19,595 bases of DNA from a virus. The translations under genes and the position numbers were made by a program. Positions within the stretch are counted from its first letter, which is position 1, and each line of letters opens with the position of its first letter. The stretch lies in UHGV virus genome UHGV-0349066, one strand, 5' to 3'. Positions 6,488 through 14,484 of the stretch are shown one piece after another. The notes under the pieces are model-generated. The model made no database searches. It saw only the letters and a program-made list of their open reading frames with translations, and had not been told where the DNA came from.

Positions 6488-7108
6488 TTATTTCATTCCG
6501 TTCTGAGAAAGCGTTGTCCCTGTAAGATGCTTAATAACGATCTTAACAGGTAAATTACTATTCTCGTATTGTACTTCGGTTTCAGACAAATCGGTGATAT
6601 CGATAACTTTAGAGGGTAACTTCGCTAAAACAACACGAATGGTGTGGGTTATTGTACCCGCTGTGGTTTTTGTACCACTAACGTAGAAGTACGCATCAAT
6701 AATACCACCATCTGCTGCCAGGTAAACCAATTTATTTTCCAACAGACACTGGCTATAAATTGACACTCCAGATAATTGCGTAACACCCAGCCTGTTATTA
6801 ACGTCAACCGTTGTTTTGCAGATTACCGCACCACCTGTCAACGTTTTTTCTACCACCATATTTCCCGATAAGGTTTTTGCATCCATTTTTGGTATAATCG
6901 GATGAGCGCCGTCAACAAACAACCCATCGTTGTTAGACTTAAGGATGTTATTCGCCGACGGACTCACTGTAACCTCGGTACCCCCTAATTTCTCAATCGG
7001 GAGTTGGTATTCAGTTTGTTCCTTAGACGCTAAGACTACTACACCCGTGATGTCTTCTGAAAGTGTCTCCAGTTCATGAATGCGCACCTTTCCTACCAGT
7101 TCAGCCAC
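6488..7108 (-). CDS. short fibre-like protein sharing the N-terminal anchor domain of the long tail fibre (206 aa)
   Basis: GTG start at 7108 with GGAGGT 5 nt upstream; N-terminus MAELVGKVRIHELETLSEDITGVVVLASKEQTEYQLPIEKL aligns with the long-fibre N-terminus MAKAVKKIRLHDLRPYTGDIGEGVLLFSKDERDYQLPVREI. Confidence 0.7.
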   Translation of the reverse strand: MAELVGKVRIHELETLSEDITGVVVLASKEQTEYQLPIEKLGGTEVTVSPSANNILKSNNDGLFVDGAHPIIPKMDAKTLSGNMVVEKTLTGGAVICKTTVDVNNRLGVTQLSGVSIYSQCLLENKLVYLAADGGIIDAYFYVSGTKTTAGTITHTIRVVLAKLPSKVIDITDLSETEVQYENSNLPVKIVIKHLTGTTLSQNGMK

Positions 7109-7110
7109 TA

Positions 7111-7623
7111 TTAACCTCCAAAGGTTAAGACACGGTTATCTGCGGTAACGATTAAATCGTTGTCTTTTACTACAGCGGCTTCTTCATCGTTACCGAAAAC
7201 CAGAACGGAGAATTGGCCTTTATAACCTAACGAGTTGGGTGAAACCTGTAACGTTACAGCGTCTTTCCCCACGGTAAATGAATCGTCCTGAAGATCTTCG
7301 GGTTGCAGGTTACTGCCACAGGCTGCGTTAATCGCGTCGATTAAATCGTGTGTGCTAAACCCCTCACCAGTTACTTGCACCAGAATAGGTTGCTGGTTTA
7401 ACCAACGTTCTGCGGTTAAACGGTTGTAATAGATTTGTAACGTTCTGTTACCGGGACGTTTTATCTTTACAACAGCAGTGGTGTCACGATCCATTTCGTT
7501 ACTGGTCTTTACGTCGCTGACTTCAACCTCGTTCTCTTGCAAGTCGAGCTGGAGGTCATGGTTAACCAGTGAAATAACCATGTTAAGTGAAGTTAACGAC
7601 AAATCTGGCGTGAATTGTTCCAC
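7111..7623 (-). CDS. hypothetical fibre-associated protein, paralog of the 13829..14389 product (170 aa)
   Basis: GTG start at 7623 with AGGAGG upstream; shares motifs PDLSL, VNHD and CGSNLQPEDL with the other paralog (FCGTNLQPEDL). Confidence 0.7.
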   Translation of the reverse strand: MEQFTPDLSLTSLNMVISLVNHDLQLDLQENEVEVSDVKTSNEMDRDTTAVVKIKRPGNRTLQIYYNRLTAERWLNQQPILVQVTGEGFSTHDLIDAINAACGSNLQPEDLQDDSFTVGKDAVTLQVSPNSLGYKGQFSVLVFGNDEEAAVVKDNDLIVTADNRVLTFGG

Positions 7624-7678
7624 GTATGGTTACCTCCTATGATTGGGGAGACGTAAAATGTTGGCTAAAAACATTTCA

Positions 7679-7688
7679 CCCCCCCCCC
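7679..7688. repeat. homopolymer C10 (G10 on the coding strand) in an intergenic region
   Basis: Ten consecutive C at 7679-7688 between the gp38-like paralog stop (7723) and the start of the 7111..7623 gene, flanked by two AT-rich hairpins. Confidence 0.9.
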
Positions 7689-7722
7689 GATTACGTTTTC
7701 AAGCACATTCGCTTGAAAATTA

Positions 7723-8166
7723 TTAACTGATTTTGAAATCTCTTAACGTACCAGTTGATTTCATCACGTTTTGGAACGCGGCACTAATGTTGTTGGTCCA
7801 GTAATAATGTTGACCATTAATAACCTGTTGATAAGTCAACGTACAAGTATTACCACCCAGGTTTACAGTAATGTTAGAAGCTCTCCCACCTTGTAAGTAA
7901 ACCGCTAAAGTAGGCTTTGCGTTGGTAAATATCGTCGTTAACTGTAACTCGATACCTACTAAAGTTCCCACCCCGCAGTTACCCGCGTTTTGAATGGTCC
8001 CCTGATTTTTCTGGTTTAACGGCCAGTTTGGTCCTACTGCACCCCATTTATTACCTAAGGAATCGCTATATGCGGCAGTTGCAATTTTACAGCCCATTGA
8101 TCGTCCCACCATTTGACTCATCATAAAAGGTCTACCCAATCCTAATTTACTACCCGCAGCGCTCAT
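7723..8166 (-). CDS. gp38-like adhesin paralog with divergent C-terminal domain; N-terminus apparently disrupted (likely extends to ATG at 8225 across a frameshift)
   Basis: Minimal ORF from ATG 8166. The in-frame sequence upstream back to the stop of the preceding gene encodes VDGVASGWVGSSARNETGEQW, homologous to the N-terminus of the 8242..9024 product; AAGGAGG plus ATG at 8225..8223 is in another frame, separated by a G4 run. Confidence 0.55.
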   Translation of the reverse strand: MSAAGSKLGLGRPFMMSQMVGRSMGCKIATAAYSDSLGNKWGAVGPNWPLNQKNQGTIQNAGNCGVGTLVGIELQLTTIFTNAKPTLAVYLQGGRASNITVNLGGNTCTLTYQQVINGQHYYWTNNISAAFQNVMKSTGTLRDFKIS

Positions 8167-8241
8167 CCATTGTTCGCCCGTTTCATTCCTAGCTGAAGAT
8201 CCGACCCATCCTGACGCTACCCCATCTACCCTCCTTTTTAA

Positions 8242-9024
8242 TTAAACACGTGAACCGTATATTGCACCTACTGCGTCCCATCTTGGCGCATTACCAGTAA
8301 CAGCTTTACCAGCTGCTCCGCCGTTATATTCTGTACCGTTACCATGAGTATTACATCTTCCTCCAGCAGCACCGACATTACCACCCGAACCGCCTGTATA
8401 TGCACTAAGAGACCCCTCACCAACAGATCCTTTACCAGGAGCGGAAATAGTACCAGCAGTTGCACCGGAACTCATATGAGAGGAAGACCCGCCAGCACCG
8501 AATGGGCGACCACCGCCACCACCAAATATTAGTCTACCCCTGTTACCGCCACCACCGCCGCCACCGCCTCCGGCAATAGCGCCACGGTTGGTTATACGCA
8601 GTCTGTTTCCTATTCCGTTCTGTATTGCGGTTCCACCTGCACCGCCTGGTGAGTTAGAACCGCCGTTGCCTCCTCTGCCGTATACTGTAACCCCAGGATT
8701 GATAACGAGTGTAATGGAGGAGTTCGGTAGGTCGCCAGGGAACTCTAAACAAGGAACTCCGCTACTATAAGACACTAAATCCCCCGTAATAGTCACAACG
8801 ACAGCAGTAGAGCCTAAAGAACGTAAATAGTTAATAAGAGTATCCTTATTATAGCTATGGTTAGCACCAATAGAATAATGGACCTCTTTTGATTTTCCCG
8901 CCAATTGCGACATCCAGCCTGGAACCGGCACACCAAGTGTGCGCATCGCGCCAGACATCCATTCGTTACCAGCTTCAGCTTTTGCTGAAGAACCAATCCA
9001 ACCACCTACGCCGACAACTGCCAC
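8242..9024 (-). CDS. T2-type gp38-like tail-fibre tip adhesin, glycine-rich (260 aa)
   Basis: GTG start overlapping the fibre TAG stop (TAGTG) with GGGAGA Shine-Dalgarno. N-terminus MAVVGVGGWIGSSA...WMSQLAG and motifs ITGDLVSYS, YGRGGNGG, AIAGGGGGGGGG, GGGGGRPFGAGG match my recollection of T2/K3-type gp38 adhesins with glycine-rich motifs. Confidence 0.75.
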   Translation of the reverse strand: MAVVGVGGWIGSSAKAEAGNEWMSGAMRTLGVPVPGWMSQLAGKSKEVHYSIGANHSYNKDTLINYLRSLGSTAVVVTITGDLVSYSSGVPCLEFPGDLPNSSITLVINPGVTVYGRGGNGGSNSPGGAGGTAIQNGIGNRLRITNRGAIAGGGGGGGGGNRGRLIFGGGGGRPFGAGGSSSHMSSGATAGTISAPGKGSVGEGSLSAYTGGSGGNVGAAGGRCNTHGNGTEYNGGAAGKAVTGNAPRWDAVGAIYGSRV

Positions 9025-12000
9025 TAGGATCTCCCTTTGATTTCGTTAACCTCTTGACGCAACGCTTTCATACCCTCTACTAACAGCGCAATAACACCAT
9101 TGTAGTTTAGACGTAAACGTTTTTCGCCTGAAATGACATCATCATCCTCAGACACAAGTTCAGGTAACGCTTCTAATGCGTCTTGAGCAATTAGACCTAC
9201 AGAGGTCTGCCAGCCGTCGTCAGGATGCTGAATTTCGTACAAATAACCGGTTAGTAACTCTAACCGATCCAAAGCTTTATCTAGTTTCACCAGATTACGT
9301 TTGTTACGACGGTCAGAACGAATCTGTACGTCGTTAAACGAACCGTTACCGCTGCCAGTAACGTTATGACCAAAGGTTACTTGACCGTTAGCATTATTAA
9401 AATACAACGGACGTAGACCGTTCCAGGAACCCGTTGCAGCTTGACCGGCGTCGGTTACTAAGAAATAGGTATTGGCACCATCGTTACGTAACATAAAGCC
9501 GTAGTTGCCGTAAGCGATTCGAAAATCAGGGTACTTAGTGACCAATTTACCGTTAACGGTTAAATCGCCACCTATAGTACCGCCCCCTGACGGTAACGCA
9601 CCGATGTCACCAGCGTTAGGCTTGTTGTGTGTGCTGTAAATCAGATAGACGGTACCGTCTGTTAGTCCTGCGGGTTTATTAGCCGTATAACTTGGCGATG
9701 TATGAATCGTTACGTTGGCATTACTAGTGTAATCCCACTGAATAGTAACACCGGTGGCGTAATTACCTATTTCAACATAAATATCGTAAGTGTCACCAGA
9801 TGTATTCACCCATGCAAAATTAGCGAAGCCGACTGAAGTCAGTCGCCATAACGCACCAGTAATACCTTTTGGATTCCCATTTCCTGCACGCAGAACCAGC
9901 TCAGAGATACCTGCTTGATGTGGGGAACCAACGTTAAACCCTGCACCACCAATCATGCTTATGTAAACCACGGAACTGGCTTGCGGCATCGTTACAGTTG
10001 CCAGTTTGAACCATCCGGCACCACCATTAAAAGACACAGTTGTTGTGTTCGCGGCACCAACATTTCGTAAGAATTTTCTCTTATCTGGAATATCGGCACC
10101 ATTCTGTTTCTTCTGCAATGACCCACCGGCCAATTCTACAGTTTGGCCAAGATTTAAACTTTCAGCCGTTATTTCGATGTTTTTGGTGCCGTCAAATGCG
10201 ATACCGTTAATGGTACGCGCTGTCTGCAATTTTGTTGCAGTGGCCGCGTTTCCGGTGGTCGACTGATTGCCCGTTTGGTTTACGCCAGGTAAGTTGATGT
10301 CTTTAGTACCATCAAAAGCTACACCACCTATATTTCGCGCAGTCTGGAGCTTAGTCGCTGTCGCGGCATTCCCCGTAGTCGATTGGTTACCGGTTTGGTT
10401 CACACCGGGCAGACTAATGTCTTGCGAACCGTCAAAGTTAACACCACCGATCTTACGTGGCGTTTGTAACTTAGTAGCGGTCGCTGCATTACCTGTCGTA
10501 TTCTGGTTACCTTGCTGGTTAACCCCCGGTAAATTGATATCCCCAGTACCGTCGAAGGTAACGCCCCCGATTCTGCGAGCGGTTTTCAGTTTCGTCGCGG
10601 TAGCGGCGTTGCCAGTAGTATCCTGATTACCGGTGGTATTTACACCAGGAATACTATCACGGGCAGTATAAACTTGTGCCCAATCTGACCACGGCGCATC
10701 CGCTGTATCACGTCGACTACGAATATAAACGGGTGCGTGCGCACCACTCGTGCCCGACCAACCAATTAACAGCTCACCTTCACCTAATGCGGCAGAACCA
10801 CCCAAATGCAGCAAGTTACCATAAGCGGTCGGATAACCGTTATTGTAAACTTCGTACATCTGAATACCAGGCGTACCTTTGTTTGAACCGGTTAGTGCAG
10901 TAACCCGACCACGACCTACCAGGGTGTTGATATTGATGTCAGCAGAACCATCGAATCTTACACCGTTAATATTTCTGGCGGTTTGAAGTTTAGTGGCTGT
11001 ACCAGCATTACCCGTGGTGTTTTGATTGCCCTGTTGGTTAACACCTGGGAGGTTAATATCACCACTACCGTCGAAAGCGACTCCACCAATTCTACGTGCG
11101 GTCTTTAATTTCGTTGCGGTTGAAGCATTGCCTGTTAACTCGCCTGCTAACCCTTTTGCAAAGGTCTGTTTTTCTGCCCAGGTGTGTGCTGCATTCAATA
11201 CAGGCATCTGTCGTGGTGTAATCGTACGACTACCTTTCTCACCAGCGATACGTACTGCAAAGAATCGATAGTTGGCAGTAGACACCGTACTACGCCAAAC
11301 CAACATACTCCGGCCTGATGTAGCGCCATCTGATGGACCAACCAGAATGCTAACTAGGTTACCGTCAATAACACCCCAATCCATTCCCGTAGGAATGTTT
11401 TTCATGGTGTTAAGCGGCGTACAGATTAACTCACCCGGTTTAAAGTCATAGGTTTGCCAGTCTAAAGGATCAACATTCGCACGTTCACCGCCGATACCTA
11501 ATACCAGCGGAAGCGAATACGATGTGAAAACCTCACGCCAATCGCTCCAAGCGTTACCCGTACGGATACGTTGAAATTTACGACCTTTAGTTTCTGTACC
11601 CGTACCGTAAGTAGTATAATTCTGTTCGACCCCTGTACCGTCTAAGCGTAAGGTAACTTCACAAACGCCTAATATGGTTTCACCAGAAGAACCGGTAAGT
11701 GGACCGTTAGTTGCTTCACCAGTGACACTGAAACGTCCCGGTTTAACGAGATCGTTAAAATTGGCTTTAAAGAAAGCACCGTCAGTCTGATAACCAACCT
11801 GAATCCAATCTTCCCATTGCGGGTTTGATGAATCCCATGTTGCGGTCAAACCACGAACATACATCGTACCACGACGTGTGGTGTATCGTTGCAACCGTCC
11901 GAAAAGACCACCTTCCATTACTTCTAGTACGCCTTGCGCGCCACCACCTTCTTCAGGGTAATGTCTGCTAAAAACAGCCAGCGAACTGCTTGAGTTTCGC

Positions 12001-13625
12001 CAGTTACCCATATGCTCAGCGCCACCCAAACTGTTCAAGTCTATAGCGGTAGATAATGGACGTACACCAGTAGTTACCATTCTCCACGGTGACCAGGGTC
12101 CATTGGCACCATTCCACTCGCCACTCAGCATACGGTTGTACACGTTACCATTACGACAGGTAAAACGCTGTGCGCCACTGTAATTACCGGCTTTATACAC
12201 TTCCAGATAACCGACTGCACCGTCTTCTGGGAAATGTTTTGCCATCGACGCATTGGTTGACGTCGACTTAGCCCACGTTCCTGTGTAATTGGCATCTGGA
12301 GCAAATGTGTTAATATCAGCATCTACAGGCATTTCGCCACGGAAACGCAGATAAGTGTCAGGAGACAGACCGATATTGCGAGCAAACGTTTCTTTATCTG
12401 GGATATCAGCGCCGTTAGAGTTTTTCTGTAACGCGCTATTCGCTTTATCTACAGTGGCTTTTAATCCCAAGAAATTGATGATATCCGCAGTTGACCCTTT
12501 CGCTAACAAGGATCTGGCCGTTTCTGTAAAATCCGTTAATCCGACTTTATTACTGCCAGTGAAATACATGAGTTTATTTGCCGCTGTGGTGACTGCGGCA
12601 ATGGCGGTGAGCAACGGACTGAGGGGTTGTTTCTGCGCAAGTTCCCCAGTAATCGTTGTTGCGAAGTTAGGGTCATTACCTAACGCCTCAGCTAATTCCG
12701 CTAAGGTATTTAACGTCTCGGGTGAAGAACCAACCAGTTCCGCAATCGCGTCACGCACCCAGGCCGTTGTGGAAATACTCGTGTCGTTTGAATCTTTCGG
12801 GGGTGTTGGGGATGACGGTTTACCCGTAAAATTCGGCGAATGTTTATTGGCTTTTAACTGTAATTCGTCATTCAGCTGTTTAACCGTGGACGGTGTGGCA
12901 GCCTCAGTCACGGATTCGCTAGTCAGCGTATCGTTAAGTTTAACGATACCTTTACCGGTTGTACTAGCGTCGATTAAGCCCTGCGCAGCGATTTTCTCCG
13001 CACGTAAGGCAGCTGACTCCGAACGTGTTGCTGCGCCCTCTGAACTTTCTTTATCTTTCGCGACCTGTGCAGCAATCTTCTCCACTGCGCCCTTACTGGC
13101 CTCAACTGAAGCCGCAGTATTCTCGACACCGGTAGCCGTCTGTTGGACTTGTCCGGCCTGTTGCGTAACCGTTTCTGCTTTCTTAGTTACATCAGCCGCT
13201 GCAGCCGTCACCGATTGTTCGCTTGTGGCGACAGCTTGAGCTTTCTCATTTACCGACTGTAATACAGTATCTACGGCAGTTTTCGCGGCTAAAACTTCAG
13301 CGTGTTTTTTGTTAACCTCAGCAGTTTTAGTGGCAACGGTTCCCGCTTGCTCGCTAACGGTGGAAGCTAACGTGTCAGTTTGTTGCTTCGCTGTTTCTGC
13401 TAAGTCTTTTGCTTGTGTGGCTTCTGTTGCAGACTGTTGTGATTTGGCCGCAGCCGTTTGTGCGTCAGCAACCGCGTTTCTGACGGTGTCAATATCCGCA
13501 ACAATCTCGCGGACAGGTAACTGATAATCCCTTTCGTCTTTCGAAAAAAGTAAAACGCCTTCACCGATATCCCCGGTGTATGGACGTAAATCGTGTAAAC
13601 GAATTTTCTTTACCGCTTTAGCCAT
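9024..13625 (-). CDS. long (L-shaped-type) tail fibre protein with C-terminal intramolecular chaperone / autoproteolytic domain (1533 aa)
   Basis: ATG at 13625; Ala-rich coiled-coil stalk; fibre motifs TLNTLAELAEALGNDPNFATT; 40-aa tandem repeats (GNAATATKLQTAR..FDG..DINLPGVNQ); C-terminal SDRRNKRNLVKLDKALDRLELLTGYLYEIQ...GLIAQDALEALPELV...NYNGVIALLVEGMKALRQEV typical of peptidase-S74-type chaperone domains. Confidence 0.9.
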   Translation of the reverse strand: MAKAVKKIRLHDLRPYTGDIGEGVLLFSKDERDYQLPVREIVADIDTVRNAVADAQTAAAKSQQSATEATQAKDLAETAKQQTDTLASTVSEQAGTVATKTAEVNKKHAEVLAAKTAVDTVLQSVNEKAQAVATSEQSVTAAAADVTKKAETVTQQAGQVQQTATGVENTAASVEASKGAVEKIAAQVAKDKESSEGAATRSESAALRAEKIAAQGLIDASTTGKGIVKLNDTLTSESVTEAATPSTVKQLNDELQLKANKHSPNFTGKPSSPTPPKDSNDTSISTTAWVRDAIAELVGSSPETLNTLAELAEALGNDPNFATTITGELAQKQPLSPLLTAIAAVTTAANKLMYFTGSNKVGLTDFTETARSLLAKGSTADIINFLGLKATVDKANSALQKNSNGADIPDKETFARNIGLSPDTYLRFRGEMPVDADINTFAPDANYTGTWAKSTSTNASMAKHFPEDGAVGYLEVYKAGNYSGAQRFTCRNGNVYNRMLSGEWNGANGPWSPWRMVTTGVRPLSTAIDLNSLGGAEHMGNWRNSSSSLAVFSRHYPEEGGGAQGVLEVMEGGLFGRLQRYTTRRGTMYVRGLTATWDSSNPQWEDWIQVGYQTDGAFFKANFNDLVKPGRFSVTGEATNGPLTGSSGETILGVCEVTLRLDGTGVEQNYTTYGTGTETKGRKFQRIRTGNAWSDWREVFTSYSLPLVLGIGGERANVDPLDWQTYDFKPGELICTPLNTMKNIPTGMDWGVIDGNLVSILVGPSDGATSGRSMLVWRSTVSTANYRFFAVRIAGEKGSRTITPRQMPVLNAAHTWAEKQTFAKGLAGELTGNASTATKLKTARRIGGVAFDGSGDINLPGVNQQGNQNTTGNAGTATKLQTARNINGVRFDGSADININTLVGRGRVTALTGSNKGTPGIQMYEVYNNGYPTAYGNLLHLGGSAALGEGELLIGWSGTSGAHAPVYIRSRRDTADAPWSDWAQVYTARDSIPGVNTTGNQDTTGNAATATKLKTARRIGGVTFDGTGDINLPGVNQQGNQNTTGNAATATKLQTPRKIGGVNFDGSQDISLPGVNQTGNQSTTGNAATATKLQTARNIGGVAFDGTKDINLPGVNQTGNQSTTGNAATATKLQTARTINGIAFDGTKNIEITAESLNLGQTVELAGGSLQKKQNGADIPDKRKFLRNVGAANTTTVSFNGGAGWFKLATVTMPQASSVVYISMIGGAGFNVGSPHQAGISELVLRAGNGNPKGITGALWRLTSVGFANFAWVNTSGDTYDIYVEIGNYATGVTIQWDYTSNANVTIHTSPSYTANKPAGLTDGTVYLIYSTHNKPNAGDIGALPSGGGTIGGDLTVNGKLVTKYPDFRIAYGNYGFMLRNDGANTYFLVTDAGQAATGSWNGLRPLYFNNANGQVTFGHNVTGSGNGSFNDVQIRSDRRNKRNLVKLDKALDRLELLTGYLYEIQHPDDGWQTSVGLIAQDALEALPELVSEDDDVISGEKRLRLNYNGVIALLVEGMKALRQEVNEIKGRS
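10134..10613 (-). repeat. four tandem ~120-bp coding repeats within the tail fibre gene (40-aa units GNAATATKLQTAR.IGGV.FDG..DINLPGVNQ.GNQ.TT)
   Basis: Protein residues about 1005-1164 show period-40 repeats; the DNA copies differ mainly at synonymous positions. The ORF track shows the repeat as mirrored plus-strand ORFs 10006..10266 and 10267..10626. Confidence 0.8.
10893..11132 (-). repeat. two further copies of the 120-bp fibre coding repeat
   Basis: Protein residues about 832-911 (GNASTATKLKTARRIGGVAFDGSGDINLPGVNQQGNQNTT, GNAGTATKLQTARNINGVRFDGSADININ...). Confidence 0.75.
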
Positions 13626-13828: not shown

Positions 13829-14389
13829 TCATGTAGCCGGGTTTTCTTCAGCTGTGTCGTCATCTGGAACCTCAAAGGTAAGAACAGCATCATCACCAAT
13901 ACAGAAGATCGCGTCATCTTCGTTTGCTAATGCTCGTTCGGTTGTATCGAATAACGTTACCATAAACGCATTCATCCACGCAGGAGAATCGTCAGCAACG
14001 TTAACAGCAATGGGTTCGTTACCTAAGGTGATATCTGCAGCACGTAAATCTTCGGGTTGTAAGTTCGTTCCGCAGAATTCATTTACAACACCTAAAATGT
14101 CACGAAGGTTGTCTTCGGTACCATCTAACGAAATCAAAATAGGTTCAGACGCTAACACTTCGTCCGCATCCAAACGGTCGTAATAAACAACCACAGAAGC
14201 ACCATCAGGTTTCCTGATTTTTGTAATCTCTGTCAGTGTGTTACGACGCGAAGTGGTCGGGGACGGGTTTGCCATAGTGTTGCTAATACGGATTTCGTTT
14301 AGAGACAACCGTGAACCGTTATCGTGGTTGATTAAAGCGACCACTAATTCGGCTGAGGCCAGACTTAAATCAGGTACGTAAGTAGTCAC
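13829..14389 (-). CDS. hypothetical fibre-associated protein, paralog of the 7111..7623 product (186 aa; start refined)
   Basis: GTG at 14389 with GGGAGG 5 nt upstream; start position matches the paralog start (MTTYVPDLSL vs MEQFTPDLSL). The ORF-track N-terminal extension to 14458 is the translated terminator hairpin and T-run. Confidence 0.7.
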   Translation of the reverse strand: MTTYVPDLSLASAELVVALINHDNGSRLSLNEIRISNTMANPSPTTSRRNTLTEITKIRKPDGASVVVYYDRLDADEVLASEPILISLDGTEDNLRDILGVVNEFCGTNLQPEDLRAADITLGNEPIAVNVADDSPAWMNAFMVTLFDTTERALANEDDAIFCIGDDAVLTFEVPDDDTAEENPAT

Positions 14390-14404
14390 TAAAACCTCCC
14401 AGAT

Positions 14405-14450
14405 CAAAAAAAAAATAAAAACACCTACCGCCCATAGAATCGGGCGGTAG
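14405..14450 (-). terminator. rho-independent terminator, 6 nt upstream of the ribosome-binding site of the 13829..14389 gene
   Basis: 9-bp GC-rich stem CTACCGCCC / GGGCGGTAG (14425-14433 / 14442-14450), 8-nt loop, then GTGTTTTTATTTTTTTTTT on the minus strand. Confidence 0.75.
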
Positions 14451-14484
14451 GCAGTCATTTTACAGCTAAAAATCGAAGTAGTTA

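Follow-up and report, generated by a model that had tools for sequence, protein, structure and literature searches.

A start-codon poly-G tract whose contraction may have switched off the second Gp38-type adhesin of an SPN3US-related jumbo phage

The window, that is the whole 19,595-nucleotide stretch of DNA analysed here (UHGV virus genome UHGV-0349066), belongs to a group of SPN3US-related jumbo phages of ~222-226 kb found in Salmonella, Shigella and E. coli assemblies. It contains, as the second of two adhesin genes, a reading frame that is separated from its own start codon by a single base within a run of four Gs. The best reading of this lesion, to which a probability of roughly 55% is given, is that an accessory adhesin, intact in all other respects, has been switched off because a poly-G tract prone to slippage became one base shorter. 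The features on which the argument rests, all on the minus strand, are as follows.

9024..13625, minus strand: tail-fibre gene, 1533 aa, with the Pfam domains Phage_fiber_2, Gp34_trimer and Peptidase_S74
8242..9024, minus strand: first adhesin, a Gp38 protein of T2/S16 type whose C-terminal domain is rich in glycine; 260 aa from a GTG start, matching PF05268 and Gp38_N
8244-8242, minus strand: TAA stop codon of gp38, read from the sequence
8236-8230, minus strand: Shine-Dalgarno sequence AAGGAGG of the second adhesin gene, with the same motif and spacing in relatives that have an intact gene
8229-8226, minus strand: spacer GTAG (4 nt) between the Shine-Dalgarno sequence and the ATG, read from the sequence
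8225-8223 (ATG), 8222-8220 (GGG) and 8219-8217 (TAG), minus strand: start codon and the rest of its frame, a two-codon ORF (8217..8225)
8223-8220, minus strand: poly-G tract overlapping the start codon, exactly G4 in the window and out of frame
8167..8220, minus strand: N-terminal codons V3-W20 of the second adhesin, translated as VASGWVGSSARNETGEQW and including W7 and W20
7723..8166, minus strand: body of the second adhesin, 147 codons from an internal ATG to TAA, comprising the rest of Gp38_N and a non-glycine-rich receptor-binding domain
7645..7719, minus strand: pair of conserved hairpins in the intergenic stretch that follows the second adhesin (-34.8 kcal/mol, z=-4.25), which are not part of the switch

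The stop codon of the fibre gene overlaps the GTG start of gp38 by one base, and the second adhesin gene starts 17 nt downstream of gp38. A preliminary description of the window had noted a canonical ribosome-binding site and ATG just after the stop of the first adhesin gene, in a frame that continues GGG TAG, and every detail of that account proved accurate when set against the sequence. The frame of ORF 7723..8166 lies one base away from that of the ATG and is open upstream as far as the gp38 TAA, reading LKRRVDGVASGWVGSSARNETGEQWMSAAG... A peptide of this frame, ...GVASGWVGSSARNETGEQWMSAAGSKLGLGRPFMMSQMVGRS..., is identical to the N-terminus of the first adhesin at 20 of 38 positions (53%, E=4e-10), in agreement with the earlier claim that the shifted frame aligns with that protein. 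The TAG that follows the G4 comes from the sequence GTAGCG, which encodes Val-Ala in the normal frame and is here read one base too soon. Between 8241 and 8166 the adhesin frame contains no ATG, GTG or TTG; an alternative in-frame start was accordingly rejected, the ATG at 8209 being in the third frame and meeting a stop after 6 codons. Codons V3-W20 can be reached only through a +1 change in the tract or through a -1 slip of the ribosome, for which the putative slip-site context is AAGGAGGGTAGATGGGGTAGCG.

Addition of one G yields a 167-aa product that matches the complete Pfam Gp38_N profile (PF21721, 1-40/40, E=6.7e-20), whereas the unrepaired 147-aa ORF retains profile positions 21-40 only. 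Residues 1-161 of the repaired product also match phrog_1121, ‘tail fiber adhesin’ (E=2.7e-46), and the product is 96% identical to its homologue P0001. In tblastn comparisons its full-length identity is 61-64% to the short adhesins of Stx prophages, annotated as ‘tail fibre adhesin / receptor recognizing protein Gp38’, and to those of SSU5-type elements; Kanagawavirus phages have tandem gene-38 pairs to which it is 45-47% identical. The first adhesin belongs to Pfam GP38 (PF05268, E=1.7e-69) and to phrog_2056 (E=2.5e-93); the Pfam search found no PF05268 match in the second, which is without the glycine-rich C-terminal motifs and so falls outside the T2/S16 polyglycine-sandwich type of gp38. 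These matches, together with G5 at exactly this place in relatives, bear out what had been proposed beforehand, namely a paralogue with a shared N-terminal domain and a different, non-glycine-rich C-terminal domain that a fifth G would restore to 167 residues. A PDB sequence search returned no significant match. From its sequence, the protein is a putative receptor-binding tip of the Gp38 type.

In the window, as in most of the related loci, the order is fibre (window 9024-13625), gp38 (window 8242-9024) and short adhesin; the orthologue of the second adhesin directly follows the fibre gene in two loci where it stands alone (L003 and L056), and two further loci (L046 and L050) hold two short adhesins. 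As one- and two-adhesin cassettes coexist in the group, the second adhesin should in principle be dispensable. In the two-short cassettes the Gp38_N adhesins have 175 and 170 aa and there is no glycine-rich gp38. The short adhesin itself occurs with two C-terminal types, of 167 and 170 aa.

Both adhesins are expected to dock on the distal end of the 1533-aa fibre. The structure of S16 gp37-gp38 shows gp38 docked on the fibre by its N-terminal bundle of three helices, each of which makes contact through an exposed Trp at its apex (PMC6851490). W7, W20 and F34 are invariant in the alignment of the family and are the putative counterparts of these apex residues, with Phe in the third place. An AlphaFold2 model of P0001 from a 6-sequence alignment reached a pLDDT of 47.5, too poor to read the geometry of the apices. 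The fibre presents a puzzle of its own, since it has a C-terminal Peptidase_S74 intramolecular-chaperone domain (residues 1437-1491), and hence a C-terminus that is presumably auto-cleaved, yet Gp38_N adhesins come after it.

The docking residues bear on the idea that the 147-aa ORF from the internal ATG at 8166 is the real product and that the upstream similarity is a relic. This is the longest conventional ORF at the locus and gene callers report it in some assemblies. No ribosome-binding site precedes 8166, however, and a protein starting at M21 would have lost half of Gp38_N along with W7 and W20, which putatively correspond to Trp residues by which S16 gp38 is attached to gp37; by analogy, it should fail to dock. 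Moreover, the upstream ATG is used by 14 of the 15 tract-bearing DNA loci. Across nine loci, the 17 codons that separate the tract from the internal ATG include seven columns with synonymous variation only and three with conservative replacements (R/K, N/S and E/Q), and the 20 codons upstream of 8166 are, judged from the aligned sequences, coding and under purifying selection in relatives. With these codons conserved, and two of the putative fibre-docking aromatic residues among them, it is very improbable that the 147-aa ORF is the functional product.

Among the relatives, the start of the gene is ATGGGGGTA (G5, in frame) in 13 loci, a G8 form in one and ATGGCGGTA in two. The states of the tract in DNA are as follows.

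ATGGGGGTAGC (G5): in frame, intact 167- or 170-aa gene; 13 loci, namely L001/L039, L024/L037, L040, L041, L044, L045, L046, L047, L048, L049, L050, L054 and L056
ATGGGGGGGGTAGC (G8): in frame, MGGVASGW with one extra Gly; L002/L038
ATGGCGGTA (MAV..., no run): in frame; L003 and L026/L043
G4: out of frame; the window only

Read from the ATG, each of the 16 related DNA loci is thus in frame. The distant genes of Stx prophages and SSU5-type elements, which start with ATGGGGGTA or ATGGGGATA, are likewise all in frame (>25 loci), which indicates that the G5 start is old and generally stable. The preliminary description had suggested comparing related phages for G5 versus G4, and had counted a start of the relatives at the internal ATG, with unconserved sequence upstream, among the evidence that would speak against it; the comparison found G5 at this very place in 13 loci, conserved upstream codons and G4 in the window alone. 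Because the predicted fifth G was found together with an intact 167- or 170-aa gene in those 13 loci, the resemblance of the broken frame to an adhesin is not due to chance. Exact-protein look-ups with the 147-aa ORF, with gp38 from a V or M start and with the 283-aa and 206-aa neighbours gave no match and no near-identical genome, and the sole match in a scan of contigs was a chance one to a GC-rich deltaproteobacterial MAG.

Contraction of the tract would account for the lesion in the following way. The normal 5' end reads ATG GGG GTA, with the G of the start codon forming part of the G5 run, and one G would have been lost from the run in the window, most simply by slipped-strand mispairing during DNA replication. 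With one G gone and the adhesin frame left without a start codon of its own, ribosomes loaded at the strong ribosome-binding site would stop after Met-Gly. With the gene off, the glycine-rich gp38 should be the sole adhesin on the fibre tips of the virions. The second adhesin would be switched on again by a +1 slip, and since both proteins have a Gp38_N domain, the restored one would then be a competitor of the glycine-rich gp38 for these tips.

The same anatomy would result if the phage really had G5 and an intact gene, and one G had been lost in base calling or in the consensus. Such a sequencing or assembly artefact is a serious possibility, though a less probable one than a real contraction. 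The lesion coincides with a homopolymer, the gene is otherwise undamaged and shows 96% identity to intact homologues, and the related loci with a short tract are all G5 (13/13). The public assemblies of the group also hold indel noise, an example being the metagenome assembly CYGL01000001.1 (L041), with about ten scattered single-base insertions, not in homopolymers, in the part corresponding to window positions 7100-8502. The frameshifts of that contig were considered as pseudogenisation and rejected, as 1-bp insertions in the same stretch also affect the neighbouring structural gene; low sequence quality is the most likely explanation, rather than gene decay. L041 also has a G10 insertion, similar to the window's G10 run, at window position ~4203.

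Against an artefact, the window is otherwise clean. When it is compared with its relatives, the indel-rich L041 excepted, the tract is the sole coding indel that is not a multiple of three across 30 ORFs, all others being intergenic or multiples of three. All 67 coding homopolymers of at least 5 nt leave their ORFs open, and L003 and L024, two independent assemblies, agree with the window on the length of the G10 run at 7679-7688. A general proneness to indels is therefore not a property of the window, which makes an artefact less likely but still possible. Independent assemblies, moreover, show out-of-frame states at the same tract. The lack of any second lesion in the gene is as compatible with an artefact as it is with a very recent mutation. 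A point against the gene being switched off by contraction is the stability of G5, which is in frame in the 13 jumbo-phage loci as well as in >25 Stx-prophage and SSU5-type loci and is short for a hypermutable tract.

The out-of-frame states come from protein records. At 90% identity, the cluster around the orthologue comprises 328 members, and most of the members that were read have 167 aa; for the out-of-frame records, tract lengths were deduced from protein sequences, which are gene calls on public assemblies. P0018 is a G8 form of 168 aa. P0014 (EDF1098026.1), a 187-aa protein from an S. Enteritidis assembly, reads MGRSRCNLWFTCLIKKEGRWGGVASGW... and includes ...KKEGRWGGVASGW; from its sequence it would require a 9-nt run, which would put the adhesin frame out of register with the true ATG. 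In three further records (P0019, P0040 and P0043) the call has 147 aa and begins at the internal ATG, the first of these records being present on three contigs of up to 224,814 bp.

Constructed sequences were then looked up by exact match. The backbone of P0019 is recorded also in two G5 forms (P0037 and P0038) and two G8 forms (P0041 and P0042), so that on/off forms (G5, G8 and the 147-aa call) occur on the same 147-residue backbone in these protein-level records from public assemblies. A second backbone, that of P0014, is recorded at the same level both in the G9 frame and as a 147-aa call (P0040), and the L002/P0018 backbone also as a 147-aa call (P0039). A 147-aa version was found for one of eight G5-type backbones (P0043) and, as a control, for neither of the two MAV backbones that have no tract (0/2). 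Since the differing forms share backbones, tract length has changed repeatedly with no amino-acid change in the other 147 codons, and these changes are concentrated in the lineage with the expanded tract. Some of the 147-aa records may reflect the start chosen by the gene caller and not an out-of-frame tract. P0039 (JGI) may be such a case, as its longest contig, at 225,879, is the same as that of the G8 product P0018. Differences in homopolymer length among public assemblies can, moreover, be technical as well as biological in origin.

The multi-allelic tract raises the question of whether the start-codon poly-G is a genuine contingency locus of this widespread enterobacterial jumbo-phage group, which is at present a tentative proposal and on balance doubtful. 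If it were one, replication slippage would reversibly toggle an accessory tip, with G5 and G8 as ON and G4, G7 and G9 as OFF, and a population would hedge between single-adhesin and mixed-adhesin virions with different host ranges. With the tract reaching from the start codon into codon 2, a change of one base in either direction toggles translation, G4 being out of frame and G5 and G8 in frame. Its length falls short of what has been used elsewhere: a threshold of 6 nt was applied to homopolymer simple sequence repeats as contingency loci of T-even phages (PMC12633550), and the window has G4 and 13 loci have G5, with only the L002/P0018 lineage reaching G8-G9. The tract may be a selected switch or a mere mutational weak spot, and both readings stand.

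A G4 start could also be read by translational recoding, in which fMet-Gly-tRNA(Gly) slips -1 on ATG GGG UAG to give MGVASGW..., the G5 protein, at a level relevant to the virion. Perfect re-pairing is possible on G GGG, the A-site codon is the stop UAG, and stops beside slippery runs, the so-called shifty stops, are known to raise frameshifting. A slippery site is therefore present, yet the other marks of a programmed -1 frameshift, a stimulatory element and conservation among homologues, are absent. The combination of G4 and TAG occurs in the window genome only, and with all relatives in frame there has been no selection for anything that favours a shift. The sequence downstream has no stable structure (MFE -16.6 kcal/mol, z=+0.57 against shuffled sequences) and no Rfam match. 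The Shine-Dalgarno sequence lies 7 nt from the shift codon, which is not among the spacings that stimulate -1 shifts, known from dnaX and prfB, and dipeptidyl-tRNA at codon 2 is prone to drop-off, as established from minigenes. The TAG, as noted above, is no more than normal coding sequence out of register. With neither a stimulatory structure nor a conserved arrangement, a programmed -1 frameshift is unsupported, and recoding to a meaningful level is improbable; a low adventitious -1 leak on G GGG UAG is physically possible. Two of the three explanations first offered for the lesion, assembly error and genuine inactivation, consequently both stand, and expression by designed slippage does not. 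A precedent for a leak is herpes simplex thymidine kinase, in which a one-base indel in a G7 run can be rescued by low-level frameshifting and is potentially leaky by slippage (review PMC5009743). That run is longer and lies inside the gene, whereas a slip in the window would fall at codon 2 on G4.

Neither Rfam families nor tRNAs turned up when the whole window was scanned, and scans for promoters and terminators gave nothing above the expectation from shuffled sequence.

Several known systems are close to that of the window. They include the short adhesins of Stx prophages (P13374 ORF66, 75/02 Stx and phi191) and of SSU5-like phage-plasmids, members of PHROG 1121, which are similar to the window protein over residues 1-167, directly follow a tail-fibre gene and start with ATG GGG GTA or ATG GGG ATA. 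The window gene differs from these in belonging to an SPN3US-related jumbo phage of ~225 kb, in coming second in a pair of adhesins and in having lost its frame. Another homopolymer lesion is known in the short-adhesin family, in the prophage genes L032, L033 and L034, where a one-base deletion in an A run (GAAGAAAAAAGT) near codon 75 causes a frameshift. The T2/T6/S16-type gp38 proteins (PF05268; PDB 6F45) have Gp38_N in common with the second adhesin, and the GW.GSSA and W-M motifs are conserved, but the C-terminal domain of the latter is unrelated and its third apex aromatic residue is Phe, not Trp. Tandem adhesins after gene 37, both of them related to the short adhesin at the 45-47% level, occur in the Kanagawavirus phages of Edwardsiella (PEi20 and PEi26) and in Klebsiella phage KLB31; both copies are annotated as intact in these pairs, unlike in the window.

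Homopolymers that toggle a reading frame are also found in other phages. The tracts of Campylobacter phages are reportedly about 9 nt and longer. Hypermutable polyG tracts in these phages are attributed to Sorensen et al. (2021, Cell Rep 35:109214), as cited in PMC10877375, and homopolymer repeats of T2 and T4 have been described as phage contingency loci (PMC12633550). As in the window group, these are homopolymers within genes in which a change of one base in either direction toggles the frame, and both alleles occur among near-identical genomes. The T-even tracts have 6 nt or more, whereas that of the window is G4, commonly G5 in relatives, and overlaps the start codon.

Phages are thus already known to have Gp38-type adhesins, adhesin genes in tandem and receptor-binding genes that are frameshifted at homopolymers. 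What is new is their setting in an undescribed ~225-kb enterobacterial jumbo-phage group and the presence of a multi-allelic poly-G tract that overlaps the start codon of the second adhesin. If G4 is real, the window genome would be a natural OFF variant of an accessory host-range determinant, and the tract (G5, G8 or G9) would serve as a simple sequence read-out of the tips that a jumbo phage displays, which bears on host-range prediction and on the choice of therapeutic phages. It would also extend homopolymer phase variation of receptor-binding proteins, shown for Campylobacter phages according to work cited in PMC10877375 and proposed for T-even phages (PMC12633550), to SPN3US-like jumbo phages of Salmonella, E. 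coli and Shigella. Should the G4 prove to be an artefact, the practical lesson would be one of annotation, in that a 167-aa adhesin should be called here and not a 147-aa hypothetical protein.

As regards the phage group, other proteins of the window are 62-64% identical to those of Salmonella jumbo phage SPN3US and the SPFM phages. GenBank phage records contain no close relative of the window, the match at DNA level being confined to the 3' half of gp38. Close relatives, at ~90-93% nucleotide identity, are contigs of 222-226 kb from IMG/VR and metagenomes as well as many Salmonella, Shigella and E. coli isolate assemblies, and include the circular 221,873-bp ‘plasmid’ p98232-contig_4 in the complete genome of E. 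coli 98232. The group recurs in isolate assemblies as single large contigs; its members include L044 (NZ_CP173450.1) as well as L045, L051 and other contigs of ~225 kb. Together with the circular ‘plasmid’, these contigs suggest a carrier state or pseudolysogeny in cultured isolates.

The surroundings of the adhesin genes vary among these phages. Paralogues annotated as DUF7941 or ‘virion structural protein’ (phrog_2935) flank the fibre-adhesin module at 7111-7623 and 13829-14458. The one next to the second adhesin has 170 aa in the window and 644 aa in L001 (3592-5526) and L056. The 209-aa ORF of the pair probably starts later than listed, as its first ~25 codons, which contain a T10 run, have no counterpart in the paralogue. 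Of the two hairpins downstream of the second adhesin, the second opens with G10 (C10 at 7679-7688 on the plus strand) paired to CCCC; relatives retain the hairpin by compensatory changes, with a G run of G5 to G10. The 3' half of gp38 (8242-8700) is 82-92% identical at the nucleotide level to gp38 of Krischvirus (RB49, JSE and pEJ01), and this half plus part of the fibre gene (to about 10049) is ~84-86% identical to the SSU5-like element CMS-2020a. From these identities, adhesin modules have evidently been exchanged between unrelated phage families.
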